Source: an uncultured bacterium (lineage in GTDB: Bacteria > SAR324 > NAC60-12). From it: a stretch of 64,000 nucleotides of DNA. Positions 25,541 to 40,393 of this stretch are shown in pieces (the first letter of the stretch is position 1; every line of letters starts with the position of its first letter). Under the pieces are notes generated by a model, which did no database searches, was not told where the DNA came from, and worked only from the letters and a program-made list of their open reading frames with translations. Position numbers and translations under genes: made by a program. The DNA lies in assembly GCA_965662235.1 (NCBI GenBank), contig CBFIGY010000015.1:3641-67640 (forward strand), in the 5' to 3' direction.

Positions 25541-26812
25541 ATGTTTCACGAGATTAAACGAAGCGATTGGGCTCTGATTGCCCTAGTTCTTTTGTTCGGG
25601 CTGGTTTTTTCCGGCGTCGCCTTTGATATTGTCCTCCGAGTGGGGGAACAGCGAGGTGGCCGTGCGGCAGACGCCATGAGCAACGCCGGGTTTGTGTTGG
25701 GTTCCGGGGTGCTGATGACCCTGATCCTGAGCACCTACCTCGGGCTCAACGCCCGGCAGAATCACCTCCTCCGGGCCCGGGAACGGTCACTGCACCAGGC
25801 CAAGGGGTTGCTAGAGGACATCATGCTCCACACGCCTCACGGACTGGCGGTCGCATCGGAGCAGGGACAGGTTCAGCAAGCGAACCCTGCTTTTTCCCAA
25901 ATCTTCGACCAGGTGGACGCGATTGGGACGTCTCTGTTCCAGCTGCTTCGACTTTCAGAAGAGCAGGTGCAGGACCTCACTCAGGCAGACACCCCGCATC
26001 CTCTGCAGGCCTCGCTCCGGGTTCCGGCCCACGGGGAACGCAGTGAGCAGAGCCTCGAATTTTCCCTCCAGCGCCTGAAGCTGGGGGAGGAAGAGGACAG
26101 CCTGATTGTTGCGCATGTGTTTGATGTGACTGCCCGCAGGCTCCTGGAGGCCCGAGTTCACCAGGCGGATCGCATGGAGGAACTGGGACGGCTGGTGAAC
26201 GAGATTGCTCATAAACTCAACACCCCGCTCGGGGCGATCACCAACAACGTTGAGTTGCTGGAGATGCGCATCGACCGCGGAGATACCACCGGACTGAAGA
26301 AGCAGGCCCAGCGCATCCTGACGGCTGCTGAGGAAGGCGCTGCCTACGTCCGGAAGCTCCGGGAACTGCCAACGCTGCAGGAGGAACTGGCTCCGACGGA
26401 ACAGACGGTGCTCGCGGTGGCGGTGCTGGAAGACGTGCTGGAGCAGATCCACGGGTTCCTGCTCGGCAAACAGGTGCTGGTGCAGCGTAACTACAACATC
26501 AACGATGAACGCCTGATCCGCTGTCACGACGGCATTCTGCGCAAAACCCTGAGCGCTCTGCTGGTGCGGGCGGTGTTGAAGGTGGAAGCCCATCCGGAGC
26601 GACTCCTGACCCTAGAGCTTCCTCTGCATCCGGATGAGGTCACCCTGGAACTCCACTACACCGACCCGACGTCGCCTCCTCCGGAACCAGCGTCTCCGGA
26701 CTTGGAACTGCTGGCCCACCAAGAGGCCATCCGGCACCTCGGAGGCGAGCTGACGGAGCGTTCCGAGGCCCAACACACCTGTCTCTCCCTTCGACTTCCC
26801 CTCTCTGCCTGA
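25541..26812 (+). CDS. Membrane histidine-kinase-like protein with a degenerate ATP-binding domain
   Basis: Two N-terminal TM helices and H-box EIAHKLNTPLGAI. I could not find N/G1/G2 boxes; the expected DxGxG region reads HYTDPTSPPPEP. There is no adjacent response regulator. Confidence 0.6.
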   Translation: MFHEIKRSDWALIALVLLFGLVFSGVAFDIVLRVGEQRGGRAADAMSNAGFVLGSGVLMTLILSTYLGLNARQNHLLRARERSLHQAKGLLEDIMLHTPHGLAVASEQGQVQQANPAFSQIFDQVDAIGTSLFQLLRLSEEQVQDLTQADTPHPLQASLRVPAHGERSEQSLEFSLQRLKLGEEEDSLIVAHVFDVTARRLLEARVHQADRMEELGRLVNEIAHKLNTPLGAITNNVELLEMRIDRGDTTGLKKQAQRILTAAEEGAAYVRKLRELPTLQEELAPTEQTVLAVAVLEDVLEQIHGFLLGKQVLVQRNYNINDERLIRCHDGILRKTLSALLVRAVLKVEAHPERLLTLELPLHPDEVTLELHYTDPTSPPPEPASPDLELLAHQEAIRHLGGELTERSEAQHTCLSLRLPLSA

Positions 26813-26924: not shown

Positions 26925-26953
26925 TTTACACACCCTAGGCCGTTCGCTATAAT
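26925..26953 (+). promoter_or_regulatory. Near-consensus sigma70 promoter TTTACA-N17-TATAAT
   Basis: -35 at 26925..26930, -10 at 26948..26953, 48 nt upstream of the BI-1 ATG. Confidence 0.5.
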
Positions 26954-27000
26954 TCTCTCATTGTTTTGCCAAGGCAACCTTTAGCTTGATAAGGAGCAAC

Positions 27001-27690
27001 ATGCGTTTTGGAAATCCCCAATCCCTGGCTTACGGAGCCGTGCCCGCTTCGTCCGTTTCCGTACAGGAGCGCCTGGTCTTCCTCAAGAAGGTCTATGGCC
27101 TCCTCGGGGCTTCGCTGCTGACGGCAACCGTCGGGGCCTACCTGGCCAGCGGACCGCTGTTTGAAGTGATGATGAGGCTGCACATGCCGCTCTTCCTGCT
27201 GGAAATCGGCCTGATCTTCTTTGCCTCCTACGCCGCGCGCAAACCCGGCCTGAACATGATTGCGCTCTTCAGCTTTACCTTTGTTTCAGGGCTGACGCTG
27301 GGGCCGATCTTGGGGCTGTACATCATGGGCGGAAAGTCCACGGTCATTGCAGAAGCCTTTGCGCTGACCACAGTGGTGTTTTTTGGACTGAGCGCCTACG
27401 TCGTCTTTTCCCGGAAGGACTTCAGCTTCATGGGCGGGTTCTTGATGACAGGACTGATCATCTTAGTGGTCGGCAGCCTCATCAACATGTTTGTGGGCAG
27501 CTCCATGGGGTCCTTCCTCATCTCTGGAGTGGCAGTGTTCCTGTTCAGTGGCTTCATTCTCTATGACACCTCGAACATCCTTCGGAACTACAGCACAGAA
27601 GACTACGTCAGCGCGACCTTGGCGCTGTACCTTGACATCCTCAACCTCTTCATTGCGCTGCTCAACATTCTGGGCTTGAGCCGCGACTGA
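27001..27690 (+). CDS. Bax-inhibitor-1/YccA-family membrane protein
   Basis: Seven predicted TM helices and a C-terminal ILYDTSNIL...DILNLFIALLNILG pattern. The ATG at 27001 has an AAGGAG SD; the track start is a TTG at 26986. Confidence 0.88.
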   Translation: MRFGNPQSLAYGAVPASSVSVQERLVFLKKVYGLLGASLLTATVGAYLASGPLFEVMMRLHMPLFLLEIGLIFFASYAARKPGLNMIALFSFTFVSGLTLGPILGLYIMGGKSTVIAEAFALTTVVFFGLSAYVVFSRKDFSFMGGFLMTGLIILVVGSLINMFVGSSMGSFLISGVAVFLFSGFILYDTSNILRNYSTEDYVSATLALYLDILNLFIALLNILGLSRD

Positions 27691-27699
27691 CCCCCCGCA

Positions 27700-30288
27700 A
27701 TGCGGCGCTTTGCCTGGGGATTCCTCTTCAGCCTCCTGGGGCTACCGCTGGTCGGAGTACTGGCGCTGGCCCTAGGGCTTTCCCTGACCTACCAAGACGC
27801 CCTGCTCGACTTTGAGCAAGCGGTGGAAGCGATCTCGACCAACACCATCCTGCTGGACACGGAGGGGAAGCCGTTCCATACCCTGCACAGCGGGGAACGT
27901 CGGCAGGTGGTGGAACGTCGTGAGACCGGACGCTGGATGCAGCTCAGTGTCTTGGCGGCAGAAGACACCCGCTTCTTTCACCACCGGGGCGTGGACCCCA
28001 TCCGGATCCTCTCCGCCCTGTGGGTGAACCTGCGCCATGGAGAGGTCAAGCAGGGAGCCAGTACCATCACCCAGCAGCTGGTCAAGGTCCTCCTCCTCAG
28101 TCCGGAGCGAACGTGGACCCGTAAGGTCCGGGAGGCCCTCATTTCCATTTCGCTGGAGTGGAAGTACGACAAGACCGATATCCTCGAAGCCTACCTCAAC
28201 ACCATCTACCTCGGACACGGCAACTATGGAGTCGAGCAAGCGGCCCAGAGTTACTTCCGCAAGCACGCCGCTGAATTGACCATTGGCGAGGCAAGCCTGC
28301 TGGGGGGCATCATCCGCCGCCCCGAATTTTACCTCAAGGTCCCCAACAACCTCCCCGAAAAGAGCGAATTTTATCCCCAGTCGGCGCTGCTGGAAGCCCT
28401 GAACCGCCGTGAGTTGGTCCTCCGAGAAATGGCCCGTCAGCGCTGGATTACAGCAGAACAGTGGCGGGAAGTCCGGGAGGAAAAGCTCCAGGTGCACCTC
28501 CCCAAGCGTTTTAGTGGCAGCGGGGCATACTTCATTCAAGAGGTGGTCAAGCGTCTGAAGAACAACCACAACCTGGCGCAGGTGTATGGAGGTGGGTATC
28601 GGGTGTACACGACCTACAATCCGGAGCTTCAGGAGTTGGCTGAAGCCGCCACACACTCCATTTACGAAGGCGACACGCCGCACTCTGCACAGGTGGCACT
28701 GGTGTCAATGGAGCCCAAGACCGGGTTTGTGCGGGCCCTGGTCGGAGGTCGGGATTTTGGGGAGTCTGAATTCAATCGGGCGGTCCAGGCGTTGCGGCAA
28801 CCAGGATCGTCGTTTAAGCCGACGCTCTATGCCACAGCCCTAGAAAAGAGCTTTGCCCCCAACAACGTTTTTAAGGATGAGCCCCTGGTGTATGAATGGG
28901 TGGACGACCTAGGCCTGACCAGCTTCTATTCGCCCGGGAATGCCGATGGCAAGTTTGGGAAGGAGCGGACCTGGCTGGGACGAAACGGGGTGGAGTACAC
29001 AACCGATCACATGACCCTAGCCAAGGCCCTGGAACGCTCCGTGAATACGGTCGCGGTGCAGGTGCTGGATCAACTCGGCATTGGTCCTCTGACTCAGCAG
29101 GCCAAAAAGGTGGGCCTGGAGGTTGATGGAAAGATGGGACTCTGCATCGCGCTCGGTTGTTCCGGAACCACGTTGCTGGACCTCACCACGTCTTACACCC
29201 CCTTTGCGAACGGCGGCATTGCGCGACGTCCGGTTTTCATTACCCGCATTGAGGATTTTACCGGCAATATCGTTTACAAGTATGAAGCCGACCCGGGCAT
29301 TCAGGCCTATTCACCATGGACCGCACACCTGATGAATGAAATGCTCCGCCGTGTGGTTCTAAAGGGCACCGGCCGCAACGCCCAGTGGGGCAACAGAGAT
29401 GTTCCCATCGCTGGGAAAACCGGCACCAACACCGATGGGCGGGACGCCTGGTTCGTTGGCTACACACCTGAACTGGTCACGGGGGTCTGGATTGGCAAAG
29501 ACGACAACACCGCTATGCCGTGGGAGCAGGGTGGACGAACCCCCGCTCGCATCTGGCGACGGTACAGCAAACCGGCTCTGCAACTGGTACCGCCACAGGA
29601 ATTTCCAGAACCACCGGAGCACGCCTTGATGCCCACCTGCTCTGTGAGTGGAAAGCTGGCCACCCAAAACTGTCCGGATGTGGAGTACTACTCCTACCAG
29701 CTGGACGCACTGCCAACCGAATACTGCACAGAGCATCCGGGCTTCCCCCTGAAGCACCTGGTCTCCATGGACGATACGCCCGTTGCCGAACTGCCGGATG
29801 CGCTCGTTCCGGAAGACGCCACTGTGGCTCAGCCGGAAGTGCTTCAAGACGCGGGACGCTTCCCCGCTCCGGAAACCCTTGCCCGGCCGCTCCCGGCTGT
29901 CCCGGAAGTGGCACTGGAGCCCAGCCCACCGGCGTCGGAGTGGCGTCCGGACGCGGCACCTGGAGAGGCGCGTGTGCTTCCAGAACCGACTCCTCGGTTC
30001 CGGGACGTTCCGGTGACAGAGCCTGAATTCTCTGCTCAGCCCACCTCTCAGGAGCGTACGAGTCGCTTCCGGGATGTTCCCACGCCGGAGCCAGAAGCAT
30101 CGACCCTTTCAGATGCCGCTGCCGATCCGGACTGGCGGGTGCCGCAGGATCCGGATGTGCCCATTTTTGAGCTGGAACCTGCCTCCGGGTCTCGGCGAAA
30201 CTCGTCAGAAGGAGGACGTTTCCTGGATCTACCTGAAGTCTTCAATACCCCCTACTCGTCCAACCGCGGAGCCCTGCCCTCTCGTTGA
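27700..30288 (+). CDS. Class A penicillin-binding protein (glycosyltransferase plus transpeptidase) with a roughly 170-aa Pro/Glu-rich C-terminal tail
   Basis: GT51 motifs EDTRFFHHRGVD, GASTITQQLVK and RKVREA. Transpeptidase motifs SSFKP, SVN and KTGT. The tail contains RFRDVP twice. Confidence 0.9.
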   Translation: MRRFAWGFLFSLLGLPLVGVLALALGLSLTYQDALLDFEQAVEAISTNTILLDTEGKPFHTLHSGERRQVVERRETGRWMQLSVLAAEDTRFFHHRGVDPIRILSALWVNLRHGEVKQGASTITQQLVKVLLLSPERTWTRKVREALISISLEWKYDKTDILEAYLNTIYLGHGNYGVEQAAQSYFRKHAAELTIGEASLLGGIIRRPEFYLKVPNNLPEKSEFYPQSALLEALNRRELVLREMARQRWITAEQWREVREEKLQVHLPKRFSGSGAYFIQEVVKRLKNNHNLAQVYGGGYRVYTTYNPELQELAEAATHSIYEGDTPHSAQVALVSMEPKTGFVRALVGGRDFGESEFNRAVQALRQPGSSFKPTLYATALEKSFAPNNVFKDEPLVYEWVDDLGLTSFYSPGNADGKFGKERTWLGRNGVEYTTDHMTLAKALERSVNTVAVQVLDQLGIGPLTQQAKKVGLEVDGKMGLCIALGCSGTTLLDLTTSYTPFANGGIARRPVFITRIEDFTGNIVYKYEADPGIQAYSPWTAHLMNEMLRRVVLKGTGRNAQWGNRDVPIAGKTGTNTDGRDAWFVGYTPELVTGVWIGKDDNTAMPWEQGGRTPARIWRRYSKPALQLVPPQEFPEPPEHALMPTCSVSGKLATQNCPDVEYYSYQLDALPTEYCTEHPGFPLKHLVSMDDTPVAELPDALVPEDATVAQPEVLQDAGRFPAPETLARPLPAVPEVALEPSPPASEWRPDAAPGEARVLPEPTPRFRDVPVTEPEFSAQPTSQERTSRFRDVPTPEPEASTLSDAAADPDWRVPQDPDVPIFELEPASGSRRNSSEGGRFLDLPEVFNTPYSSNRGALPSR

Positions 30289-30297
30289 GAATCAAGC

Positions 30298-32139
30298 ATG
30301 CGTGTCTTCTTGTTGTTGCTGGTGAGCCTCAGTGTGCTCAGCTGTTCCGGCCCCCGGCCTGAGGGGCCAGCAGAGGTTTCTGCGGATCGAGGCATCCGCC
30401 GCACGGCTCCAGACCCGAGCGAGCGAGTCGCTTTGGTGCTGGGAAATGCCGAATACTCAGCGAGTCCTCTGAAGAACCCGGTGAATGACGCCCGCGCCAT
30501 GGCGGCTTTGCTGGAAGAGGCTCAGTTTGAAGTCCAGCTTCTGGAAAATGCCACCTACGCCCAGATGGAGGATGCCCTTCATGCCTTTGGGCAGAAGCTG
30601 AGCCGCGCTCGGGTGGCGCTGTTTTACTACGCTGGACACGGGGTGCAGTCGCAGGGACGGAACTACCTGATGCCGGTCGACGCATCGGTGCAGAAACCGC
30701 ATGAGCTGCGTTACCAGACTCTGGAATTAGGCCGCATCCTGGAAACCATGGAAAGTGCCGGAAGCGCCACGAATCTGGTCATTCTGGACGCCTGCCGCAA
30801 CAACCCCTTCGAGTCGGCATGGCGCTCTGAGCAGCGCGGATTGGCACCGGTCCGAGCGCCCGGAGGAACCTTTGTGGCCTTTGCGACAGCTCCGGGAGAG
30901 GTTGCAGCAGACGGCTCCGGACAGCATGGGCTTTATACCGAGGCCCTCCTGCAGAACCTCCGCACGCCCGGAGTTCCGGTGGAGTTGGCGTTCAAGCGGG
31001 TTCGGCAAGACGTGTTGCAGGCCAGCAATCAGCAGCAAATCCCCTGGGATCAATCGTCCTTGACCACGGACTTTCGCTTCTTTCCGGGTGCGGCGCCTCC
31101 TGAGATCGCTGAGGTGCCTGAGCCTGTGGTTGTGTGTGACGAACCGTGCCAGCAGCAGCGGTTGACATCCATGCGGGCCGAGTTCAAGGAGCTTCGGGAG
31201 CGGGAGTTGGAGCGCCCAGAGGCGGCCGAACTGGTCCGGCGCTGGCAGGCGTTTCTGCAGACGCATCAAGGGCGTTCCGCTTCAGTGACAGAAGAAAACA
31301 CGATGCGCGCCAAGGCCCGGAAGCAGCTCGCCTTCTGGAAGCAGGAACAACAGGCCCTCCAGTCGAATGAAGACCAGAAGCGCCAGCAGTGGCGTCAAGG
31401 GGTCTGGACGGAGCCCGCGACCCGGATGGATTTTGTTGCAGTGGAAGGAGACCCCTTCTTCCGTTTGGGAGACCTGCTGGCCGACCAACCTCAGTGGGAA
31501 GAGGTGGCGGTTCCACGCTTCTGGATGTCCCGTTACGAGGTGACCTTGGCGCAGTGGGAGGCGGTGATGAAGAGCCCTGCGGAAGCTCCTCCTGCAGACT
31601 CCGTTCAGGACTGGGTCAAGCAGACCCTCCGGAAGGGCTGGGAGAGCGCTAAGCAGGTGGCGCAGCAGTACCTTCCCGAAAAACAGATCCCGGTTGTCGG
31701 CAAGACGTCTTCAGAAATTGCCGATTTTCTCTCTCGCCTCAATGCGCTGCATCCGGAAGGGCCGGAAATCCGCCTTCCCACTGCAGCAGAATGGGAGTAC
31801 GCCTGCCGAGAAGGAGGACGGCGGACTCGATTTGGTACAGGAAAGATGACCATTAGTTTGTATGACGCTAATTTTCAACCCGAGGCGAAACGCCCTGCTT
31901 TTGTCCTAGGTCCCGGACGTGAGGACACGAAGCTGGCGCCCGTCGGTTCGTATGAGCCCAATGCCCTCGGCCTTTATGACCTCAGCGGCAATGCCGCGGA
32001 GTGGGTGGACGGTTTGGATCAGCTGCGTGGGGGCAGCTTTCAGGATGGCGGAGCCGCGTTGCAGTGTGCCGCGTTGCAGCAAGGACGCCTGTGGGGGCGA
32101 GATCAGACGGCTGGCATCCGACTGGTGAGAGGGTACTGA
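30298..32139 (+). CDS. Lipoprotein with an N-terminal caspase (peptidase C14) domain and a C-terminal FGE/SUMF1-like domain
   Basis: Lipobox LSVLSC. Caspase dyad YYAGHG (His114) and ILDACRNNPF (Cys166). The FGE-like region has FWMSRYEVT, RLPTAAEWEYACREGG, YDLSGNAAEWV and RGGSF. Confidence 0.85.
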   Translation: MRVFLLLLVSLSVLSCSGPRPEGPAEVSADRGIRRTAPDPSERVALVLGNAEYSASPLKNPVNDARAMAALLEEAQFEVQLLENATYAQMEDALHAFGQKLSRARVALFYYAGHGVQSQGRNYLMPVDASVQKPHELRYQTLELGRILETMESAGSATNLVILDACRNNPFESAWRSEQRGLAPVRAPGGTFVAFATAPGEVAADGSGQHGLYTEALLQNLRTPGVPVELAFKRVRQDVLQASNQQQIPWDQSSLTTDFRFFPGAAPPEIAEVPEPVVVCDEPCQQQRLTSMRAEFKELRERELERPEAAELVRRWQAFLQTHQGRSASVTEENTMRAKARKQLAFWKQEQQALQSNEDQKRQQWRQGVWTEPATRMDFVAVEGDPFFRLGDLLADQPQWEEVAVPRFWMSRYEVTLAQWEAVMKSPAEAPPADSVQDWVKQTLRKGWESAKQVAQQYLPEKQIPVVGKTSSEIADFLSRLNALHPEGPEIRLPTAAEWEYACREGGRRTRFGTGKMTISLYDANFQPEAKRPAFVLGPGREDTKLAPVGSYEPNALGLYDLSGNAAEWVDGLDQLRGGSFQDGGAALQCAALQQGRLWGRDQTAGIRLVRGY

Positions 32140-32925
32140 ATGACAGAATCCATTGACCCTGCTCAGCAGCCGGAAGCATGGCTGGAAGCTCACTACTCTG
32201 AACTGGAGAAAGTGGTCCGGCACCTCTGCGACCGCAAACGCCTTTGGGGAGACGAGGCCGAGGAGTTTCAGAGCCTCGCGCGCCTGCACTTTGTGGAACG
32301 CGACTACGCCGTCATCCGGGAACTGGGCCAGGTGCAGTCGGTCCAGTCATTCCTCTACGCGGTGCTGTCCCGGTTGCTGGTCGATTACATCCGGCAACGT
32401 AAGGGCCGGTTCCGCCCGTCTCGCAAGGCCGAGGGCCAGGGCGAGATCGCGGTTTTGCTGGAACGGATGGTCCTGGAGCAGCGCCTGACCCTGGAAGAGG
32501 CCTTTCAGTCCCTGACCATCACCCACCAACGGGACCTCAGCCGTCAGGCGTTTCAGGAACTTTGCAACACCTTGGACCTGCAGCGGGGGCGTCCGGAACT
32601 GCAGAGCCTGGAGGAGCCGGAGCTCCTGCCGGCTGCAGAAGCCTCTGTGGAAGAGCTGGCCTTTGTCACGCCTCGGGTGCTCCTGGAGCCTGCTCTGGCT
32701 GAGCTGGAGGCGCTGCAGGAAGGACTCAGCTCTGAGGATCGTTTGCTGCTGGAGTGGCGCTTCCGGGACCAACTCTCCATCAGTGAAATTGCGCGGGTGC
32801 TGAAGATCACTCGCTACCATGCGGAGACCTCCCTCCAGCGTCTGCTGCTGCGTTTGCGAGAACGCCTGCTGGAACAGGGACTTGACGAAGATCACTTGCG
32901 ACAGCTCTTGCGTTTGCTTGGATAA
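32140..32925 (+). CDS. Sigma-70 family, ECF-like sigma factor, unusually long (261 aa)
   Basis: Region-2-like AEEFQSL...SFLYAVLSRLLVDYIRQRKG. Region-4 HTH LSISEIARVLKITRYHAETSLQRLLLRLRERL. About 80 aa lie between them. The ATG abuts the caspase gene stop (TGAATG). Confidence 0.7.
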   Translation: MTESIDPAQQPEAWLEAHYSELEKVVRHLCDRKRLWGDEAEEFQSLARLHFVERDYAVIRELGQVQSVQSFLYAVLSRLLVDYIRQRKGRFRPSRKAEGQGEIAVLLERMVLEQRLTLEEAFQSLTITHQRDLSRQAFQELCNTLDLQRGRPELQSLEEPELLPAAEASVEELAFVTPRVLLEPALAELEALQEGLSSEDRLLLEWRFRDQLSISEIARVLKITRYHAETSLQRLLLRLRERLLEQGLDEDHLRQLLRLLG

Positions 32926-33005
32926 TCCTATCGTTTATTTTGAAAACCTGTGGATCGTCCGTCCAGACCAAGTGAAGGTAACAACCCCAATGTTTTGGGC
33001 GGCTG

Positions 33006-33950
33006 ATGGAGATTGGATTTATGTTGAATGATTGCCCCTCAACCCAGACGATGGCCAACTTTTCGGATGGCACCCTTCCGGAAACCGAGCACCGCAAGGT
33101 GGTCGATCACCTGGCCGCATGTCGAGACTGTTCCGAGTGGATGGCGGTGCTGATGGAGACCAAGGAGGCGCTCCCGCATCTGTTCCAGGAGGAAGCGGAG
33201 TCCCAAGTGGCTCCGGTGGTGAAACTCCCGCCGGCGAACAAGCGTCGCCCAGCGCCAAACCGTTCCTTCCAGTGGAAGCCCCTCTTGGTTGCCGCGTCGA
33301 TTTCAGTGGTCGCCGGACTGAGCCTGCTGAGCGCCTTCTCCGGAGGCCCCAAGCTGGAAGGCATGGGCGCAGCCGCTGTTGCCGAACGACTCCGGAACCT
33401 GCCGGCCCCAGTGGAGTCGGTTCCAGAAGAGACGATGATGGCGTTTTCCAGCACCACGACTCCTGCACAGTCCGCCTTCACAACCGGATTGCTGATGACG
33501 CGTTCAACGCACTACCTCGTGAACCACGAACTCAAGGCCGCGGCAGCGACCTTTGAGCAGCTGGAGCAACTCAATCTCAATCCGACCCTCAACCGCCAAC
33601 TCTACGTCTGGAAGACCTGGGCCAAGCAAACGCGCGATGCCTCGTATGCCCTTCCTCCGGAGGTGGAGCACTGGGAAGGACGCTTTGCTTCAGATGCTGA
33701 GCGCCCCTACCTGCACCTCGGAGAACTGGCGGAAGGAAGCCGCATTGCGATTCTGCACCAGGATCAGAGCTTCTTCCGGGACCTCCCAATGCGGACCCTC
33801 CGAGCAGAACTGGAGGACGCCCAGGCGCTGCCAGGTGTTTTCCGAAGCTTGGAAACATTGGAACTGCTGGCACTTTCGCCCAACCCGACCGACCACCAGT
33901 GGCAAGAGGCGGATGAAGCCGTCCGAGACCTCATCCTGCTCTTCCAATGA
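33006..33950 (+). CDS. Single-pass anti-sigma factor with a zf-HC2 (ZAS) motif and a roughly 200-aa periplasmic domain
   Basis: HLAACRDC fits HxxxCxxC. TM helix WKPLLVAASISVVAGLSLLSAF. It directly follows the sigma gene. An alternative ATG is at 33021. Confidence 0.65.
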   Translation: MEIGFMLNDCPSTQTMANFSDGTLPETEHRKVVDHLAACRDCSEWMAVLMETKEALPHLFQEEAESQVAPVVKLPPANKRRPAPNRSFQWKPLLVAASISVVAGLSLLSAFSGGPKLEGMGAAAVAERLRNLPAPVESVPEETMMAFSSTTTPAQSAFTTGLLMTRSTHYLVNHELKAAAATFEQLEQLNLNPTLNRQLYVWKTWAKQTRDASYALPPEVEHWEGRFASDAERPYLHLGELAEGSRIAILHQDQSFFRDLPMRTLRAELEDAQALPGVFRSLETLELLALSPNPTDHQWQEADEAVRDLILLFQ

Positions 33951-35695
33951 AAACCCTGGTCTTCTGGAGCCTGCTGACGCTGAAGATCGCCTGTGTTGCG
34001 GTTTGGTTGCTGGTCTCGCTTGGAGTGGCGCTGGCGCAGTCGGACCCCCGAGCACACGCCGCTTGGTGGGTGGAACAGCACGGGGCTTTGGAAGAAGCCT
34101 CGGTTCCAGAAGCCGCTCGGGTCCGGAAGGTTTTTGACCGTGTGGTCCATGTGGCCGACAAACGCGCCGGACGCTGGCCCCAGTTGGTTCTACTCCGCTC
34201 TCAACGCCCTCCCCTCGCCCTTTCGCTGCCTGACGGTTCCGTGCTCCTCAATCACGCGGCCCTGAATTTCCTCTATCAAGTAGACAATCCGGAGCTCGGA
34301 GACACCCGTGCCGCGTTTGTGCTGGGACACGAACTGGCGCACCTCGCACAGGATGACTTCTGGCAGGCAGAAGCCTTTGCGGCCTCTCAGGCAAATCCCC
34401 AGTGGGAGCAGTCGGTAGAAGACTGGCTGAAGGGAACGCAGCAGGCAGACACTCCAATCCTGAGGGAACTGCAAGCTGACGCCTATGGGCTCATCTACTC
34501 CGTCCAGGCGGGTTTTGCAGCAGGACCGGTGCTGGATGAAGGTGCCCGCTTTTTTGCCGATTGGGCGTCACAGTCACGGATGCATCCGCACGCCGGCACC
34601 CACCCTCCGGATGCGACCCGTGCCGCGATCCTTCAGGCGTCGCTGCACCAGGTCCGAGCGGTGCAGGACTGGTTCGACTTCGGAACCCTGCTTCTGCAGA
34701 TTGGGCGCTTGGAAGATGCGCGGGTGCTGCTGGAGGAGTACCAGCGTCGCTTCCCCGGACGCGCAGTGCTCAACAACCTGGGCGTGGTGGCGTATCAGCA
34801 GGCGATGGGGCAACTTGCGGCCTGCAATCCGGTGCTGCCGCTCTCCATGATGACGTCCCTGCTTGTCGACACGGAAACCCGAGGGGCTGGAACCCGTCAG
34901 GGGTTGCACAACTGCCTCAAGGAGGAAGCGGTGCAACGTGGCTTCCAAGATGCCGCCCGCTACTTTGAAGAAGCCAGCCAGCGGGATCCGGACTACGTTC
35001 CGGCATGGAGCAACCTCGCTTCTGTAAGGCTTTGGAAGGGAGACGCTTCAGGCGCAATGAGCGCCGCGGATGAGGCCCTGAAGCGGGACGCAACGCTTCC
35101 GGAAGCGCTCAACCTGAAGGCGCTGGCGCTCTACCGCTTTGGGGTCCAGACCGGAATCGACACTGCTGACCGTGCTCTGAAGGTGCTGGAAATTCTGCAA
35201 CGCCGCTATCCCGACTATGCTCCGGCGTCCTACAACCGGGCGGTGCTGCTGACGGAACGCCAGCGCTCAGCAGCGGCTCAGGAGGCATGGCAGCAGGCGC
35301 TTGAACAACCGCTTCCGGTGGCGTATGCCCAGCACGTCCGAGAACAGCTGGGCCGTCCTGCGGCTGCTCCGGCTCCGGTGCGAGCTCAGGTTCCGGCGCC
35401 CATCGCCCTCGGCTCCAGCTCATCTGAATCCGGAACCGTCACTCAACGCCTGCGTCTGGGCAGCTTCCGGGCGTCCGTTTCTGTTCAGGAAGACCTGCGG
35501 ATTCTGCGTCTGGGACGTTCTGTGGAGCTGATTCAGCAGGCTCATCCCGACCTCGACCCAATAACCCTTCCGCGTCCCAAGCTCCGGCACCGCCTTCCTT
35601 CCGGAGAGCTGTGGCTCTATGAGGACTTTGCCCTAGAGCTCCGGGACGGTCTCAGCCACCGTGCTTGGTGGTTTGCCCCTCAGGACCGTTCCTGA
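33947..35695 (+). CDS. Secreted HExxH metalloprotease-like protein with TPR repeats (BepA-like M48 plus TPR layout)
   Basis: N-terminal signal/anchor. FVLGHELAHLAQDDFW zinc motif. TPR-like repeats in the central region. ATGA overlap with the anti-sigma gene. Confidence 0.7.
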   Translation: MKTLVFWSLLTLKIACVAVWLLVSLGVALAQSDPRAHAAWWVEQHGALEEASVPEAARVRKVFDRVVHVADKRAGRWPQLVLLRSQRPPLALSLPDGSVLLNHAALNFLYQVDNPELGDTRAAFVLGHELAHLAQDDFWQAEAFAASQANPQWEQSVEDWLKGTQQADTPILRELQADAYGLIYSVQAGFAAGPVLDEGARFFADWASQSRMHPHAGTHPPDATRAAILQASLHQVRAVQDWFDFGTLLLQIGRLEDARVLLEEYQRRFPGRAVLNNLGVVAYQQAMGQLAACNPVLPLSMMTSLLVDTETRGAGTRQGLHNCLKEEAVQRGFQDAARYFEEASQRDPDYVPAWSNLASVRLWKGDASGAMSAADEALKRDATLPEALNLKALALYRFGVQTGIDTADRALKVLEILQRRYPDYAPASYNRAVLLTERQRSAAAQEAWQQALEQPLPVAYAQHVREQLGRPAAAPAPVRAQVPAPIALGSSSSESGTVTQRLRLGSFRASVSVQEDLRILRLGRSVELIQQAHPDLDPITLPRPKLRHRLPSGELWLYEDFALELRDGLSHRAWWFAPQDRS

Positions 35696-35824
35696 CGTTG
35701 GTTCCTGCCGCAATCTTTTGATTTTTTCTCCAGCTTCTTGCATCGTTGTGGCTCAGCTTTCACAGGTGCGTCCTGTGACCCTCAGAGAGGGATCCTTCTG
35801 ACTGATTTGCCTCAAGCCATCACC

Positions 35825-36451
35825 ATGCCTGACACGCCTCGTTTGCTCATCACCTGCCTGGACCTCGAAGGGGTTCTGATTCCAGAAATCTGGTTAGGCC
35901 TCGCCGACCGAACCGGTCTGGAGGATCTTCGCCTGACCACGCGTGACCTTGCGGATTATGACGAGCTGATGCAGCACCGGTTGCGGGTCTGTGAGCAGCA
36001 TGGGCTGGGACTTCCGGACATCCAGAAGGTCGTGGAAACCATGGCACCGATGCCCGGCGCCGTTGAGTTCCTCCGCTGGCTCAAGACCAAGGGCGAGGTG
36101 GTGATCCTCTCAGACACCTTCCGCGAGTTTGTGGAACCGCTGCTGCCGCAGCTGGAGCACCCGACCCTCTTCTGTCATTCCCTAGAGGTGGAGCCTTCGG
36201 GCAGGATTGCCAACTACTGCCTGCGCCTGCAGGACCAGAAGCGCAAGGCCGTCGAAGCCTTCCGGAGCCTGAACTTTCAGGTGGTGTCTGCCGGTGATTC
36301 CTATAACGACATTTCCATGCTCCAAGCCTCCCACTGGGGACTGCTCTTCCGTCCTGCAGAAAAAGTGGTGGCTGAGTATCCTGAATTTCCGGTGACCACC
36401 GATTACGCTGGCCTCCAGGCAGAGCTGTCCAAGCTTCCGGGCTATGCGTAA
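35825..36451 (+). CDS. thrH: ThrH-type phosphoserine phosphatase / homoserine phosphotransferase (HAD family)
   Basis: Collinear with Pseudomonas ThrH as I recall it: CLDLEGVLIPEIW, VVILSDTF and AGDSYNDISML. The ATG at 35825 removes a non-homologous 29-aa leader. Confidence 0.8.
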   Translation: MPDTPRLLITCLDLEGVLIPEIWLGLADRTGLEDLRLTTRDLADYDELMQHRLRVCEQHGLGLPDIQKVVETMAPMPGAVEFLRWLKTKGEVVILSDTFREFVEPLLPQLEHPTLFCHSLEVEPSGRIANYCLRLQDQKRKAVEAFRSLNFQVVSAGDSYNDISMLQASHWGLLFRPAEKVVAEYPEFPVTTDYAGLQAELSKLPGYA

Positions 36452-37247
36452 ACCCTCTCGAAGCCCTCGTTCCGGAGGCAAACCCGCAGCACGGGGACGC
36501 CGTCCAGGCGCGCCTCGGAGCCGTGAAGAAGTGCTCTACGGCATCCAACCCATTGCAGAAGCCCTCCAGCATCGTCTCCGTCCCCTCGAAGCGCTGTTGG
36601 TGAAGAGTGGAGCGCGCAACTCACGGATTGAGGAGCTGGTGCATCAGGCACAGGCGCTTCAGCTACCGGTCCGCTCAGTGGAAGGCCGTGAGCTGGACCA
36701 GCGGTGTCCGGGTGCAGTGCATCAGGGCGTGGTGCTGGAGTGTGGGGAGCGGGAGACCCTAGAGGCGGAGGCCCTGCCTGACGCACGTCGGCAGCCGTAT
36801 CCGGTCCTCATGGCGTTGGATCAGGTGGAAGATCCGCACAACCTTGGAGCCATTTTGCGGACCTGTGGCTTCTTTGGTGTCGACGCGCTCGTGATGCCCC
36901 GAGACCATGCACCACCGCTTGGGGGAGTGGTCGCCAAAAGTTCCACCGGCGTGTCCGAGTGGTTCCCGATCCTCAAGGTGCCGAACCTGCACCGTTTCCT
37001 GACCCAACAGCAGCAAGCTGGTTACTGGGTGGTTGGGTTGGACATGAATGGTGCCGAGCCGCTGACAGCGCTTCAACGGGACCGAGCGCTGATTCTGGTG
37101 ATGGGAAACGAAGGGCAGGGACTGAGGCCACTGACGCGACAGACGTGTGACTGGGCGGTGCAGATTTCCGGAAGCGGGGCTGTGGAATCATTGAACGTCA
37201 GCAACGCTGCTGCGATTACTCTGCATCAGGTCTTTCGGGAAGCGTAA
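36444..37247 (+). CDS. rlmB: 23S rRNA (guanosine-2'-O)-methyltransferase RlmB (SpoU/TrmH family)
   Basis: LDQVEDPHNLGAILRTCGFFGVDALV, LVMGNEGQGLR and ESLNVSNAAAITL. Confidence 0.85.
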   Translation: MRKPSRSPRSGGKPAARGRRPGAPRSREEVLYGIQPIAEALQHRLRPLEALLVKSGARNSRIEELVHQAQALQLPVRSVEGRELDQRCPGAVHQGVVLECGERETLEAEALPDARRQPYPVLMALDQVEDPHNLGAILRTCGFFGVDALVMPRDHAPPLGGVVAKSSTGVSEWFPILKVPNLHRFLTQQQQAGYWVVGLDMNGAEPLTALQRDRALILVMGNEGQGLRPLTRQTCDWAVQISGSGAVESLNVSNAAAITLHQVFREA

Positions 37248-38673
37248 CTGCACGGACCTCCGTTTCCACAGTTCCATCTGGGAGGTGAATCTCCAGCCGC
37301 TCCCCGACCTGAACGTCTTGGGCGTGCCGCAGCGCCTTGCGGTTGGGCTTCCGAACCATGGCATATCCGCGCTGCACCTGAGCCAGTGGACTGAGGTGCT
37401 GCAGCGCTTCCGCATGGGCGCTGAGCTGTTGCTTCCGGCGGGTGAGGTCTTGCTGCAGCGCCCGCTCCAGACGAACCTGCAACTGCTGGAGGTACGGGGT
37501 GAGGTCCCGGAGGTGCTGCTGAGGCGCCAGCACCCGGAGGGTCTGATCTGCCTGCTGCAACCGCAGCTGCCGTCGTTCGTGCTGACGAGCCCAGGTTGCC
37601 TGCAACCGGCCTTCGAGGTCGTCCACCCGCTGCTGATAAAACGCAATGGCTCGTTCCGGGGAGGCGATTCGGTACTGAAGCTGCTGAACACGTTCCTGAG
37701 CCCGCTGCGTTTGACGCTCCAAGGACCGGATGAGCTGATTCTGCAGCTCGTTGACGGTGTAGAGCAGATCTGCCCGACGCGGCACCGCCTGTTCCATGGC
37801 TGCAGAAGGCGTTGGAGCCCGGACGTCTGCAACGAAGTCGGCAATGGTGTAGTCGGTTTCGTGACCGACCGCTGAGATGATCGGTAACGGCATCTCAAAG
37901 ATGGCCCGCGCCAGTTGCTCATCGTTGAAGGCCCAGAGGTCTTCCAACGACCCGCCTCCTCGTCCGCAGATGACGACGTCGACTCCCAACTCCTGATGAT
38001 GCTCCGCAAAGAACCGGAGGCCGGCGAGCAGCTCCGGAATGGCTCGGTCGCCCTGCACAGAGGCGGGATAGAGCAGCACCGGAATGCCGGGGAAGCGGCG
38101 GTTCAGCACCGTCCACATGTCATGAATGACGGCTCCGGTCTGAGAGGTGACAATGCCAATCCGGTTGGGCAGAAAGGGAAGGGGCCGCTTGTGTCGGTCG
38201 TCAAAGAGGCCCTCACGCTGGAGCCGGTTCCGGAGCTGCTCAAACGCCAGCTGGAGCGCCCCCACGCCCTTGGGTTCCAGTGAAGAAGCCTGAAGCTGGT
38301 ACTCGCCCCGTGGGCCATAGACGCTCACACTGCCCCGAACCACCACCTCCAAACCATGCTCCGGACGAAACGGCAGGCGTGCTGCCGCGTTCCGGAACAT
38401 CACCACCCGAATCTGTGCCTGCGTGTCCTTGAGCGTGAAGTAGAGGTGCCCGGACGACGCCCGGGTGAGGTTAGAAATTTCGCCCTCCACCATCACGCCC
38501 CGGAACTTTCCCTCTAGGACAAAACGGATCTGCTGTGTCAGTTCAGCCACCGTCAGAGGCTGCGGAGGCGAAGGGGGCGGCGGGGGCTCTGACGGAGGAG
38601 TGGGTTCCGGAGTGCGGGGCTCCGTTTCCACAATGAACGGAATGCTGGTTTGGTAGCTTTTCTTAGCGGGCAT
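37216..38673 (-). CDS. xseA: Exodeoxyribonuclease VII large subunit, with a Pro-rich N-terminal extension
   Basis: OB-fold start LTVAELTQQIRFVLEGKFRGVMVEGEISNL...GHLYFTLKD. Catalytic core and C-terminal coiled coil. Confidence 0.9.
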   Translation of the reverse strand: MPAKKSYQTSIPFIVETEPRTPEPTPPSEPPPPPSPPQPLTVAELTQQIRFVLEGKFRGVMVEGEISNLTRASSGHLYFTLKDTQAQIRVVMFRNAAARLPFRPEHGLEVVVRGSVSVYGPRGEYQLQASSLEPKGVGALQLAFEQLRNRLQREGLFDDRHKRPLPFLPNRIGIVTSQTGAVIHDMWTVLNRRFPGIPVLLYPASVQGDRAIPELLAGLRFFAEHHQELGVDVVICGRGGGSLEDLWAFNDEQLARAIFEMPLPIISAVGHETDYTIADFVADVRAPTPSAAMEQAVPRRADLLYTVNELQNQLIRSLERQTQRAQERVQQLQYRIASPERAIAFYQQRVDDLEGRLQATWARQHERRQLRLQQADQTLRVLAPQQHLRDLTPYLQQLQVRLERALQQDLTRRKQQLSAHAEALQHLSPLAQVQRGYAMVRKPNRKALRHAQDVQVGERLEIHLPDGTVETEVRAVTLPERPDAE

Positions 38674-40393
38674 TCCGGATTTCTGTCAGGCGGTTTTCAT
38701 AGTAGTCGCTTCCTGAAGGCGCCTGGGCGCGGGGGCTCTGATCAGCTAGGCGCAGCGCTTCCTGAGCAGCGTGCAGGGCCTGCTCATACAGCCCTTGCTG
38801 CCGGTACCCTTCAGCAAGAGTGTCCCAGATGAACGCCGCAGGCTGATGTGCCAGAGCCGTCTGAGCGAGCTGAATCGATTCCTCTAGGGCCTCCGGATCA
38901 TCGGCGCGGTTTTCGGCAAGGACCCAAGCTAGGTTGTTCAGGGTCCGGGGATCTTCTGGGGCCAGCTCCAGGGCCTGCCGGTAGTAGCGTTCGGCTTCTT
39001 CCAATTGCCCTTGAGAGTAAGCGAGGTCTCCGAGTTGCGTCAGGAATCCGGAATCTCGCGGAGAGAGGGATTCGTTGTGCTGCACGTACCAAGTGAGCCA
39101 CTGACGGATGCCCGCGTTGGAAGTGGCGTAGCTGTTGATGCCAATTGTGCAGAGCAGGGTCAGCACGCATCCGAACTGAATCCAGCGGACGCGCCGGTGG
39201 TGTGCGGAAACCTTCTCAGGTGCTTGGGCGCCTGCTTTGAGGAAGTTGAGGCGGTCGAGGATGCCGTAGTGATGCCAGTTGGGTTTTTCGGGGTCAATGC
39301 CATTGAGCCAGGCGACCTTCAGGAGCGCACGTCCCATGGGCTCCAGACCCACGCGTTCCAGCGCATTGCAGTCTGCCTGACGTTCGAAGTTGCGGCTCAG
39401 GAATCCCATTCCGAAGCGTAGGAACAGCAGCAGCGCGAGCACCGTGAAGCTCCCGTAGAAGACCGCAGGCAGTTCCCACTCCCCAAACCACTCGGTGACC
39501 GTCAGGGCCGCTGAGAGCAGCATCATGCCCTCCAGAAAGGCAAAGAACGCGAAGGCGTAAAAGAGCAGGTGCTGCTTGCGCAGGTGCCCGGCTTCATGGG
39601 CAATCACCGCTCGGAGTTCTTCTGGAGTGAGGGCGTTCAGCAGCTGTCGACTGATGAGCAGGTAACGGAGTCCGGGAAGGAGGCCCACGACGCCGGCGGT
39701 TGCGCTGGAAAGCAACTCCTCCGGCCAGATCAGTACCTTACGGACTGAGACGCCATTGACCCGCAGTTCTTCTTCAATGAGGGTGCGGCCTTCGCTTTCC
39801 GGAAGCGCCTCTAGGTTCCACGCCGTCATCATCACTGGAGGCGCGAGCGCAATCATCAGGACCAAGCTGCTCAGGGTGCTTAGAAGGAGTTCCCAGTTGA
39901 GGGGCAGGTCTCCGGTCCAAAGGGGCAACGCCGCCAGCCACAGGGCATGGACGCCGCCGAGCAGCAGCAAGGGGAGCTGCAGACGGAGGCTCCGGATCAG
40001 CCGGGGAGCATAGGCTTCATGACGGTGCTGAAGGGGCGTGAGGGCCAGACCGTCGAGGAGCCAGAAGTGGACAATGAGCAGCGCAAACGCCCAGCCATCC
40101 GGATTCCACCACCCCTGAAACGTGCCCTGCAGGCGCAGGTCCAGGGCTTCGGTGTAAATGGCCCCCAGCCAAGCAGAAAAGATCAGCAGGCGCTTGAGGT
40201 GCTGCTGCCGCTGCCGCGTCAGGGGCCGGCCTTCGAAAGACGCCTGTCCCAGCCAGAAGGCGAGGCCCAGGAGGATCAGCAGCGTCAGAGGCCAGGGGAG
40301 GTTCAGCCACGCCTCCGGGCGAATCGCGGTATCTTCCGTGAGCAACGACAGGCTGAGCGAGGCAAGGATGAGGGGAAGAAAGGGCAAGAACAT
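38663..40393 (-). CDS. Polytopic M48-family zinc metalloprotease with a C-terminal TPR domain
   Basis: Multiple TM helices, AHEAGHLRKQH (HExxH) and C-terminal TPR repeats (YSQGQLEEAERYYRQALELAPEDPRTLNNLAWVL). Its end overlaps the xseA start by 11 nt. Confidence 0.8.
   Translation of the reverse strand: MFLPFLPLILASLSLSLLTEDTAIRPEAWLNLPWPLTLLILLGLAFWLGQASFEGRPLTRQRQQHLKRLLIFSAWLGAIYTEALDLRLQGTFQGWWNPDGWAFALLIVHFWLLDGLALTPLQHRHEAYAPRLIRSLRLQLPLLLLGGVHALWLAALPLWTGDLPLNWELLLSTLSSLVLMIALAPPVMMTAWNLEALPESEGRTLIEEELRVNGVSVRKVLIWPEELLSSATAGVVGLLPGLRYLLISRQLLNALTPEELRAVIAHEAGHLRKQHLLFYAFAFFAFLEGMMLLSAALTVTEWFGEWELPAVFYGSFTVLALLLFLRFGMGFLSRNFERQADCNALERVGLEPMGRALLKVAWLNGIDPEKPNWHHYGILDRLNFLKAGAQAPEKVSAHHRRVRWIQFGCVLTLLCTIGINSYATSNAGIRQWLTWYVQHNESLSPRDSGFLTQLGDLAYSQGQLEEAERYYRQALELAPEDPRTLNNLAWVLAENRADDPEALEESIQLAQTALAHQPAAFIWDTLAEGYRQQGLYEQALHAAQEALRLADQSPRAQAPSGSDYYENRLTEIRNAR

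Follow-up and report, generated by a model that had tools for sequence, protein, structure and literature searches.

A C14 caspase-like lipoprotein gene beside a sigma factor, a zinc-finger anti-sigma and an M48-TPR metalloprotease in a SAR324 bacterium: parts of a candidate envelope signalling module

Described systems and the present locus

In canonical regulated intramembrane proteolysis of anti-sigma factors, a single-pass anti-sigma loses its periplasmic domain at site 1 before site-2 cleavage follows; RseA is cut by DegS and then by RseP, and RsiW by PrsW and then by RasP. The locus analysed here lies on a 64,000-nt stretch of DNA from an uncultured bacterium of the SAR324 lineage NAC60-12 (assembly GCA_965662235.1, contig CBFIGY010000015.1, forward-strand positions 3,641-67,640). 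The whole stretch is called the window, and coordinates refer to it unless they carry the label of another locus. The locus encodes a single-pass anti-sigma as in the canonical pathways, next to a divergent sigma factor, but its candidates for the site-1 step are a C14 cysteine protease and an M48 metalloprotease, not a DegS-type protease or PrsW.

The closest characterised system is DdvS/DdvA of Myxococcus xanthus, which consists of a sigma factor of the extracytoplasmic function (ECF) type and a transmembrane anti-sigma with a periplasmic TPR-CHAT part (PMC11506125, PMC6061681). DdvA-like proteins were reported by its authors only from some Myxococcota and one Comamonas, and the action of the CHAT domain as a site-1 protease ahead of RseP is proposed but unproven (PMC11506125). 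The SAR324 locus shares with DdvA a cytoplasmic zinc-finger domain of the CHCC type, a single transmembrane (TM) helix, a flexible juxtamembrane linker and a caspase-fold protease in the periplasm as judged from export signals, and many relatives of the window anti-sigma have exactly the fused architecture of DdvA. In contrast to DdvA, however, the window caspase is a separate C14 lipoprotein carrying a domain like formylglycine-generating enzyme (FGE), and the anti-sigma has no CHAT domain joined to it; there is an additional M48-TPR partner and no defence island, and the sigma factor carries about 60 additional residues and cannot be recognised as a DdvS relative. Since neither the window sigma, nor the profile of its family, nor an acidobacterial fusion of zinc-binding anti-sigma (ZAS), TPR and CHAT parts gave a match when the PDB was searched by sequence for DdvA/DdvS, kinship to DdvS/DdvA is not demonstrable by sequence.

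In two CRISPR-associated systems a caspase-fold protease controls a sigma factor in the cytoplasm. In type III-E Craspase, the ECF sigma RpoE/CASP-sigma is held by Csx30, and Csx30 is cut by the TPR-CHAT protein Csx29 (PMC10028731). The resemblance lies in a caspase-fold protease cutting a sigma-binding inhibitor so that sigma is freed; in contrast, Craspase is CRISPR-encoded, works in the cytoplasm and is guided by RNA, Csx30 does not belong to the membrane ZAS proteins, and Craspase genes are absent here. In the SAVED-CHAT/PCaspase/PCc-sigma system of the Haliangium ochraceum type III-B CRISPR locus, the C14 protease PCaspase cleaves PCc-sigma (bioRxiv 10.1101/2023.06.23.546230). There, as here, a true Peptidase_C14 is encoded with a sigma-70-like factor; the Haliangium locus has a Ser/Thr kinase gene too, and two proteases act in series there. 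However, PCaspase is cytoplasmic, is triggered by cA3 and cuts the sigma itself, and that locus has no membrane anti-sigma, M48-TPR protein or export signals. Finally, the actinobacterial ECF group ECF54 has genes for CHAT, subtilase or carboxypeptidase proteins in its neighbourhood, and control by proteolysis has been suggested for it (PMC8999054, PMC7826278). Its conserved neighbours likewise include CHAT-domain proteases. An assignment of the window sigma to ECF54 was considered and rejected, because ECF54 is actinobacterial and lacks an anti-sigma, whereas a ZAS anti-sigma is conserved in the present family, which occurs in Acidobacteriota, Gemmatimonadota, 'Deltaproteobacteria' and other phyla.

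A preliminary description of the locus had stated that no ECF pathway using a C14 protease had been described, which is now outdated in view of DdvA (PMC11506125), Craspase-Csx30-RpoE (PMC10028731) and PCaspase (bioRxiv 10.1101/2023.06.23.546230). Precedents for the control of sigma factors by caspase-fold proteases thus exist; for the periplasmic version with C14 and M48-TPR proteins, a full-text literature search found no paper linking either protease to an anti-sigma.

The sigma factor, the anti-sigma and two exported proteases

Genes 3 to 6 of a plus-strand string in the window encode a C14-FGE lipoprotein, a sigma factor, an anti-sigma and an M48-TPR metalloprotease. With about even confidence, we propose that these four form one envelope signalling module in which the caspase-fold protease has a regulatory role, and, as part of the same claim, that the two genes ahead of them (BI-1 and PBP1A) are envelope housekeeping genes sharing the upstream promoter only in this lineage.

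The sigma factor (32140-32925, plus strand) is a divergent member of the sigma-70 family and is weakly recognised by profile hidden Markov models (HMMs): Sigma70_r4 gave E 1.5e-3 and 18.4 bits against a cut-off of 24.1, TIGR02937 gave 35.8 bits against 42.9, and Pfam Sigma70_r2 had no match in the protein. An AlphaFold (AF2) model built on 119 family sequences (pLDDT 82) consists of an N-terminal helical domain (residues 11-145), in which sigma2 is followed by four extra helices (95-145), a disordered linker (152-177) and a C-terminal helix-turn-helix domain corresponding to sigma4. When the model was compared with the PDB using Foldseek, all top matches were sigma-70-family factors (SigD, SigB, FliA, sigmaS, ECF sigH, sigL), and the best were group 3 factors of similar length (SigD, SigB, FliA). 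A profile search placed the protein in a family of at least 559 clusters, named 'sigma-70 family' or 'FliA' by NCBI/JGI, some members of which carry Pfam Sigma70_r2 and r4_2. By its modelled fold the protein is a sigma factor, and 'ECF' is an approximate label for it, because the model has four extra helices between sigma2 and sigma4. The term ECF-like of the preliminary description holds for the architecture alone, and the scores stay under the curated ECF/sigma-70 HMM thresholds. The view of this sigma as an orphan, based on single-sequence searches that returned four proteins and one genome locus, was abandoned when an alignment query opened the whole family.

Two further features of the sigma family were observed. 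An invariant G(K/R)(W/F)RPS motif stands just after sigma2, and in 12 loci of the family (e.g. L014:8800-9828; loci are given by their L numbers) a Ser/Thr protein kinase gene lies directly 5' of the sigma gene, which recalls the kinase of the Haliangium PCaspase locus. The kinase gene and this motif together hint at control by phosphorylation.

The anti-sigma (33021-33950, plus strand) is predicted to cross the membrane once, by a TM helix that joins a zinc finger (CHCC/HxxxCxxC) in the cytoplasm to a helical domain of about 200 aa in the periplasm. Its long open reading frame (ORF) opens at 33006, but the true start is probably the ATG at 33021 (MLNDCPS, as in two Deltaproteobacteria metagenome-assembled genomes (MAGs), L001 and L166), which widens the gap after the sigma gene from 80 to about 95 nt. 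The zf-HC2 profile gave 21.7 bits (cut-off 22.2), with relatives at 23.8-28.4 bits. The zinc motif HLAACRDC together with an invariant upstream Cys makes up the CHCC set, and the protein is encoded beside its sigma; zinc and sigma binding are predicted. The TM helix spans residues 90-113 when counted on the long ORF, in agreement with the single-pass HxxxCxxC anti-sigma described earlier. An AlphaFold model made without an alignment reached a pLDDT of 44.6 and was used for helix content alone.

At 309-314 aa the window anti-sigma has no TPR-CHAT part of its own. Its alignment with the family anti-sigmas of about 300 aa covers the full length, as does that with residues 1-290 of fused ZAS-TPR-CHAT proteins, and a plain MAFFT alignment across phyla retains conserved periplasmic positions in addition to the CHCC zinc set. 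The DdvA-type fused form occurs among these relatives, e.g. in L011. Such fused zinc-finger/TM/TPR-CHAT anti-sigmas are common in MAGs of Acidobacteriota and Gemmatimonadota (L011:10825-14223 and about 20 others in L006-L164), and the L011 protein had no PDB sequence match except synthetic TPRs.

The C14-FGE protein (30298-32139, plus strand) begins with a signal peptide followed by Cys16, which is conserved in L001, in a more diverged locus of the same clade (L002) and in P0008, the nearest homologue from outside the clade. A C14 caspase domain (Peptidase_C14, E 2e-42), a charged linker and a C-terminal FGE-like domain (FGE-sulfatase, E 7e-25) follow, so that the lipobox-bearing fusion is as first described. 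Its catalytic dyad is intact: YYAGH114G and LDAC166R align with the motifs of the MALT1 paracaspase, which is also the closest solved relative of the domain, suggesting a catalytically competent protease. The FGE-like domain has PorK/GldK, FGE and PvdO as PDB relatives. FGE itself requires a pair of catalytic copper-binding cysteines after RGGS (C336 and C341 in the human enzyme). In the window protein, as in L001, L002 and P0008, a single Cys follows RGGSF, and alignments to solved FGEs end before the Cys region. As one Cys stands where FGE needs two, we do not read the domain as an enzyme; a binding or sensor role of the non-enzymatic PorK/GldK or PvdO type is likely.

The last of these four genes (33947-35695, plus strand) overlaps the anti-sigma gene by 4 nt. 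Its product is a secreted, M48-like zinc metalloprotease that begins with a signal or anchor sequence and also has TPR repeats and a C-terminal domain. Peptidase_M48 scored 25.1 bits (cut-off 20.3) and TPR was matched as well. The zinc-site signature GHELAH and ELQADA (HExxH plus the downstream Glu, E..AD) is invariant in five sequences from different phyla. BepA is a periplasmic M48 protease of E. coli with a C-terminal TPR domain, and the window protein resembles it in the order of M48 and TPR, in export and in the intact HExxH and downstream Glu. It differs in belonging to a separate family (299 representative clusters at E<=1e-30 among 1.84 billion proteins), in lying characteristically right after an anti-sigma gene and in its extra C-terminal domain. 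The preliminary description had called it BepA-like, which holds for the M48-TPR architecture and HExxH; orthology does not hold, as no BepA model appeared among the NCBIfam matches and the Pfam M48 match is weak and partial.

Gene linkage across phyla and the surrounding string

The sigma alignment query returned 259 genome and 131 metagenome loci, of which 80 each were analysed. They come mostly from Acidobacteriota and Gemmatimonadota, and their commonest layout is a sigma gene, a zinc-finger anti-sigma of about 300 aa and a TPR + CHAT protein of about 1000-1100 aa (Pfam E 1e-70). Of the sigma-anchored loci, 77 extend 5 kb or more downstream, and 53 of these have a CHAT ORF. Each of the 67 CHAT ORFs is found no more than 5 kb from the sigma gene, and the outer flanks at 5-10 kb hold none. 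Long CHAT proteins number 61, of which 21 are fused to a zinc-finger and TM anti-sigma (the DdvA architecture) and 40 are separate, with an N-terminal hydrophobic anchor; 95-96% of these retain one His and one Cys. In three loci a Peptidase_C14 gene is oriented divergently to sigma, and some loci of the family combine CHAT, C14 and kinase genes. Three sigma-anchored loci carry a homologue of the window M48-TPR protein at position +2, with 23-36% identity over about 600 aa and with HELAH and E..AD invariant. The idea that sigmas linked to M48-TPR genes are the closest relatives of the window sigma was rejected, since all members outside the clade share 27-38% identity with it.

When the M48-TPR gene served as anchor, another 79 loci (0.96 Mb) were obtained, which belong to SAR324, Nitrospirota, Planctomycetota, Desulfobacterota, Geobacter, Acidobacteriota and many Gammaproteobacteria. 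An anti-sigma of the family ends at the start of the M48-TPR gene in 37 of the 59 loci with enough upstream sequence, and 31 have the sigma family further upstream. CHAT (17) or C14 (17) genes occur within 8 kb in 32 of the 79 loci, and in 18 of the 35 in which both flanks reach at least 5 kb. Identity to the window C14 domain is 40-47% for seven of these C14 proteins, which share FYYAGHG and LDACRxNP with it; six have a signal peptide at the N-terminus, and the ORF of the other (L237) is over-extended upstream. Their genes lie directly after the M48-TPR gene (L185, L237) or divergent from sigma (L195, L202, L215, L216, L230). In Methylococcales, a Sel1-C14 protein of about 900 aa is encoded about 0.2-1 kb downstream. 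A protease-rich form of the module is found in the cultured Geobacter hydrogenophilus DSM 13691 (L182:2905-17039, NZ_JAHCZI010000011), where one plus-strand string encodes a sigma factor, a ZAS anti-sigma, an HtrA-like protein (Trypsin_2+PDZ), the M48-TPR protein, a second trypsin-like protease, a stand-alone FGE-sulfatase, a C14 and a C14-DUF4384 protein.

Many gammaproteobacterial M48-TPR loci (L215:6000-6806, L237:6002-6805 and similar) have as sigma partner a protein of about 268 aa with sigma-70 r2. It could not be placed in the window sigma family by hhalign (L215), and the anti-sigmas of these loci show no obvious HxxxCxxC motif. The pairing of M48-TPR and caspase-fold proteins is therefore, as sequence comparison goes, wider than one sigma family.

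As a background, although not a census, we used 80 loci anchored on relatives of the C14 domain among the matches listed (1.07 Mb; the L001 genome was not among them), which contained no sigma, no anti-sigma, one M48-TPR and two CHAT genes. Fisher p values range from 2e-4 to 2e-20 and are indicative only, as the loci are phylogenetically related.

The exact arrangement of the window was found in a narrow clade. The Deltaproteobacteria MAG L001 (85% identical) is fully syntenic with the window. A second lineage (L002, L003, L085; caspase 55% and sigma 62% identical) keeps BI-1, PBP, C14-FGE and sigma; the genes upstream differ, and sigma is followed by a convergent ORF, taken without a search to be aminotransferase-like. 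The MAG L166, at a distance similar to that of the L002 lineage, has the anti-sigma and M48-TPR genes (47% and 56% identical). The caspase stop abuts the sigma ATG (TGA, 0-1 nt, ATG) in the window, L001, L002 and L085, a junction found in three lineages. Conservation of the neighbourhood is accordingly of two kinds: caspase-fold genes accompany sigma, anti-sigma and M48-TPR genes in many phyla, and the exact string with BI-1 and PBP is restricted to the narrow clade.

Within the spacer between the sigma and anti-sigma genes, the motif TTGAAAAyC-N8-GTCCGTCC (32940-32964, plus strand) is identical in the window, in L001 and even in L166, where sigma is missing upstream. We regard it as a candidate operator or promoter, and it may act as the promoter of the anti-sigma and M48-TPR genes. 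A regulon search found no other exact site in the window or elsewhere in the 324 loci, and sites with three mismatches occurred at chance level.

The whole string starts behind a sigma-70-type promoter, TTTACA-17-TATAAT (26925-26953, plus strand; 11 of 12 consensus positions), the near-consensus promoter that had been noticed before. Both hexamers and the 17-nt spacing recur in L001 and also, with TATACT, in the much more diverged L002, whose flanks are dissimilar and cannot be aligned with those of the window. Six plus-strand ORFs (26986-27690, 27700-30288, 30298-32139, 32140-32925, 33006-33950 and 33947-35695), with gaps of 9, 9, 0, 80 and -4 nt, matched the preliminary description exactly in spacing and order. 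The string runs on beyond these six: a HAD phosphatase (35738-36451) and a SpoU methylase gene (36444-37247) extend the co-directional run to eight. The domains expected from that description (Bax1-I, Transgly/Transpeptidase, Peptidase_C14, FGE-sulfatase, Peptidase_M48 and TPR) were all matched by HMM searches, the weak part being the zf-HC2 and sigma models, which score under cut-off in the window proteins.

The first gene encodes a BI-1/YccA-family polytopic membrane protein with six or more hydrophobic segments (Pfam Bax1-I, E 2e-53). Its start is probably the ATG at 27001, which an AAGGAG ribosome-binding site precedes, giving a coding region of 27001-27690 in place of the long ORF. The protein falls short of the equivalog model for YccA, the FtsH modulator (NF007765, 114 bits against a cut-off of 353). 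The second gene (27700-30288, plus strand) encodes a class A penicillin-binding protein (PBP) with one N-terminal TM helix (Transgly E 3e-55, Transpeptidase E 3e-28), which passes the PBP1A family threshold (TIGR02074, 524.3 bits against 508.75). Its C-terminal part of about 200 aa (29700-30288) is a low-complexity tail rich in Pro, Glu and Ala, with repeated segments resembling 'RFRDVP(V)TEPE', and no Pfam domain covers it. Homologues of BI-1 and the PBP were found in none of the roughly 240 module loci outside the window clade. Since both accompany the module only in this narrow clade, their link to it is unsupported; the coupling to peptidoglycan synthesis and the 'striking' co-occurrence of BI-1 with a caspase, both suggested earlier, are not borne out.

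Two more genes near the string were noted. Directly 5' of the promoter, 25541-26812 (plus strand) encodes a PAS + HisKA protein with two N-terminal hydrophobic stretches, in which HATPase_c was not detected; it is therefore perhaps a histidine kinase of a degenerate or unusual kind. Three kb downstream on the opposite strand, 38663-40393 encodes a second, different M48+TPR protein of 576 aa (Peptidase_M48, E 2e-13) with C-terminal TPRs and weak HtpX matches, which is 89% identical in L001.

Candidate mechanism, competing explanations and meaning

Gene anatomy, domains, catalytic residues, topology signals and the cross-phylum linkage are observations; from these we infer cleavage events, their order, a signal and a regulon, and regulated proteolysis of the anti-sigma appears the most likely mechanism. 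The cytoplasmic zinc finger of the anti-sigma would tether sigma at the membrane, and its helical periplasmic domain would be watched by two periplasmic proteases. Upon a signal, the periplasmic part would be clipped at site 1, which would permit an intramembrane cut by an RseP-type protease encoded elsewhere and thereby free sigma. The caspase-fold protease would regulate the site-1 step, either by cutting the anti-sigma or by activating, or being activated by, the M48-TPR protein, with the FGE-like domain serving as its binding or sensor module and not as an enzyme.

The earlier proposal that the caspase-like lipoprotein is the site-1 protease or the sensor for the anti-sigma is supported in part, as regards the functional tie. 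CHAT and C14 genes recur beside sigma and anti-sigma genes in many phyla, and the window anti-sigma has full-length homology with anti-sigmas that either carry TPR-CHAT as a fusion or have it encoded after them; the caspase-to-sigma link is thus supported by these comparisons. The more constant partner of the anti-sigma, as judged from its neighbours, is the M48-TPR protein, and the site-1 enzyme may be either it or the C14 protein. A regulatory role for C14-FGE is favoured because the fused relatives put a caspase-fold domain on the sensor side. More tentatively, and with confidence short of even, we suggest that a periplasmic relay of two proteases (C14 or CHAT, and M48-TPR) gates the anti-sigma independently of CRISPR or CBASS and is widespread, from Acidobacteriota to Gammaproteobacteria.

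Several findings weigh against the four genes forming one module with a regulatory caspase. The string also holds genes unrelated to it (BI-1, PBP, HAD, SpoU), so that adjacency here is not functional in itself, and the exact arrangement is narrow, being confined to the three lineages. In L166 (L166:7000-9632) the anti-sigma and M48-TPR genes form an isolated pair, preceded by TctA, ThuA and GFO-oxidoreductase genes, with no sigma or caspase gene within 7 kb upstream. Trios of sigma, anti-sigma and M48-TPR without a caspase-fold gene within 8-10 kb occur in L052/L183, L167, L169 and L203, and the caspase is therefore dispensable in some systems. Many gammaproteobacterial loci have a different sigma-70-type protein as sigma partner. 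As a class, C14-FGE proteins show no linkage to sigma factors, as seen from P0008 (42% identity), whose neighbourhood has no sigma, anti-sigma or M48-TPR gene, and from the 80 other C14 relatives. Moreover, gene linkage cannot tell a regulator from a regulated target.

The main alternative, possible if somewhat doubtful, is that the M48-TPR protein alone is the protease or sensor of the anti-sigma, the caspase-fold protein being an output or client, that is, a regulon member or a controlled periplasmic effector. The M48-TPR gene is the most constant neighbour, overlapping the anti-sigma gene by 4 nt in the window and abutting it in the 37 loci counted above; the trios just listed do without CHAT or C14; and the position and orientation of the C14/CHAT gene vary (upstream, downstream, divergent), which is typical of regulon members beside ECF genes. 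However, in the 21 fused proteins the caspase fold is part of the anti-sigma itself, placing it on the sensor side at least in the CHAT-type relatives, and most loci of the sigma family have CHAT without M48-TPR, so that M48-TPR cannot be a trigger common to all. The caspase gene of the window clade lies upstream of sigma and is translationally coupled to it, not behind a sigma-dependent promoter.

It is unlikely that the arrangement reflects operon packing without shared function, C14-FGE working with the PBP and BI-1 or on its own. Such an explanation would fit the great abundance of the C14-FGE architecture (7774 matches at E<=1e-10), which is normally unlinked to sigma, the clearly unrelated genes of the string and the restriction of the exact arrangement to three lineages. 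But the same C14 subfamily was recruited independently in SAR324 and in several gammaproteobacterial orders, FGE and C14 together in Geobacter, and CHAT elsewhere, which is hard to see as chance, and BI-1 and the PBP never accompany those other module loci.

An anti-phage or programmed-death switch, with the caspase as a death effector unleashed by a sigma-controlled programme, much like CHAT and PCaspase systems tied to CRISPR or CBASS, is very improbable and was rejected, and nothing points to the lysis switch proposed earlier: known sigma-linked caspase-fold proteases do act in defence (PMC11506125, PMC10028731, bioRxiv 10.1101/2023.06.23.546230) and the window caspase matches the PADLOC 'caspase' model (E 1e-16), but that match is generic, PADLOC has none for sigma, anti-sigma, M48-TPR, BI-1 or PBP, the window neighbourhood holds housekeeping genes (malate synthase, exonuclease VII, RecC, SpoU) and no CRISPR, CBASS or other defence gene, and all proteases here are exported by signal prediction, not cytoplasmic.

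Bacterial C14 caspases and CHAT proteases are abundant, and almost none has a known substrate or role. Gene linkage in many phyla ties these caspase-fold proteases to a testable substrate candidate, the ZAS anti-sigma, and to a readout, sigma-dependent transcription; cultured carriers include Geobacter hydrogenophilus DSM 13691 and Desulfamplus magnetovallimortis. The M48-TPR metalloprotease family emerges as a dedicated anti-sigma partner. If the two-protease relay exists, it would be the first regulated intramembrane proteolysis pathway with a site-1 step dependent on a true C14 caspase, an envelope 'caspase cascade'. The DdvA model, itself unproven, would no longer be limited to a few myxobacteria and to fused CHAT domains but would take in hundreds of genomes and stand-alone C14 proteases.

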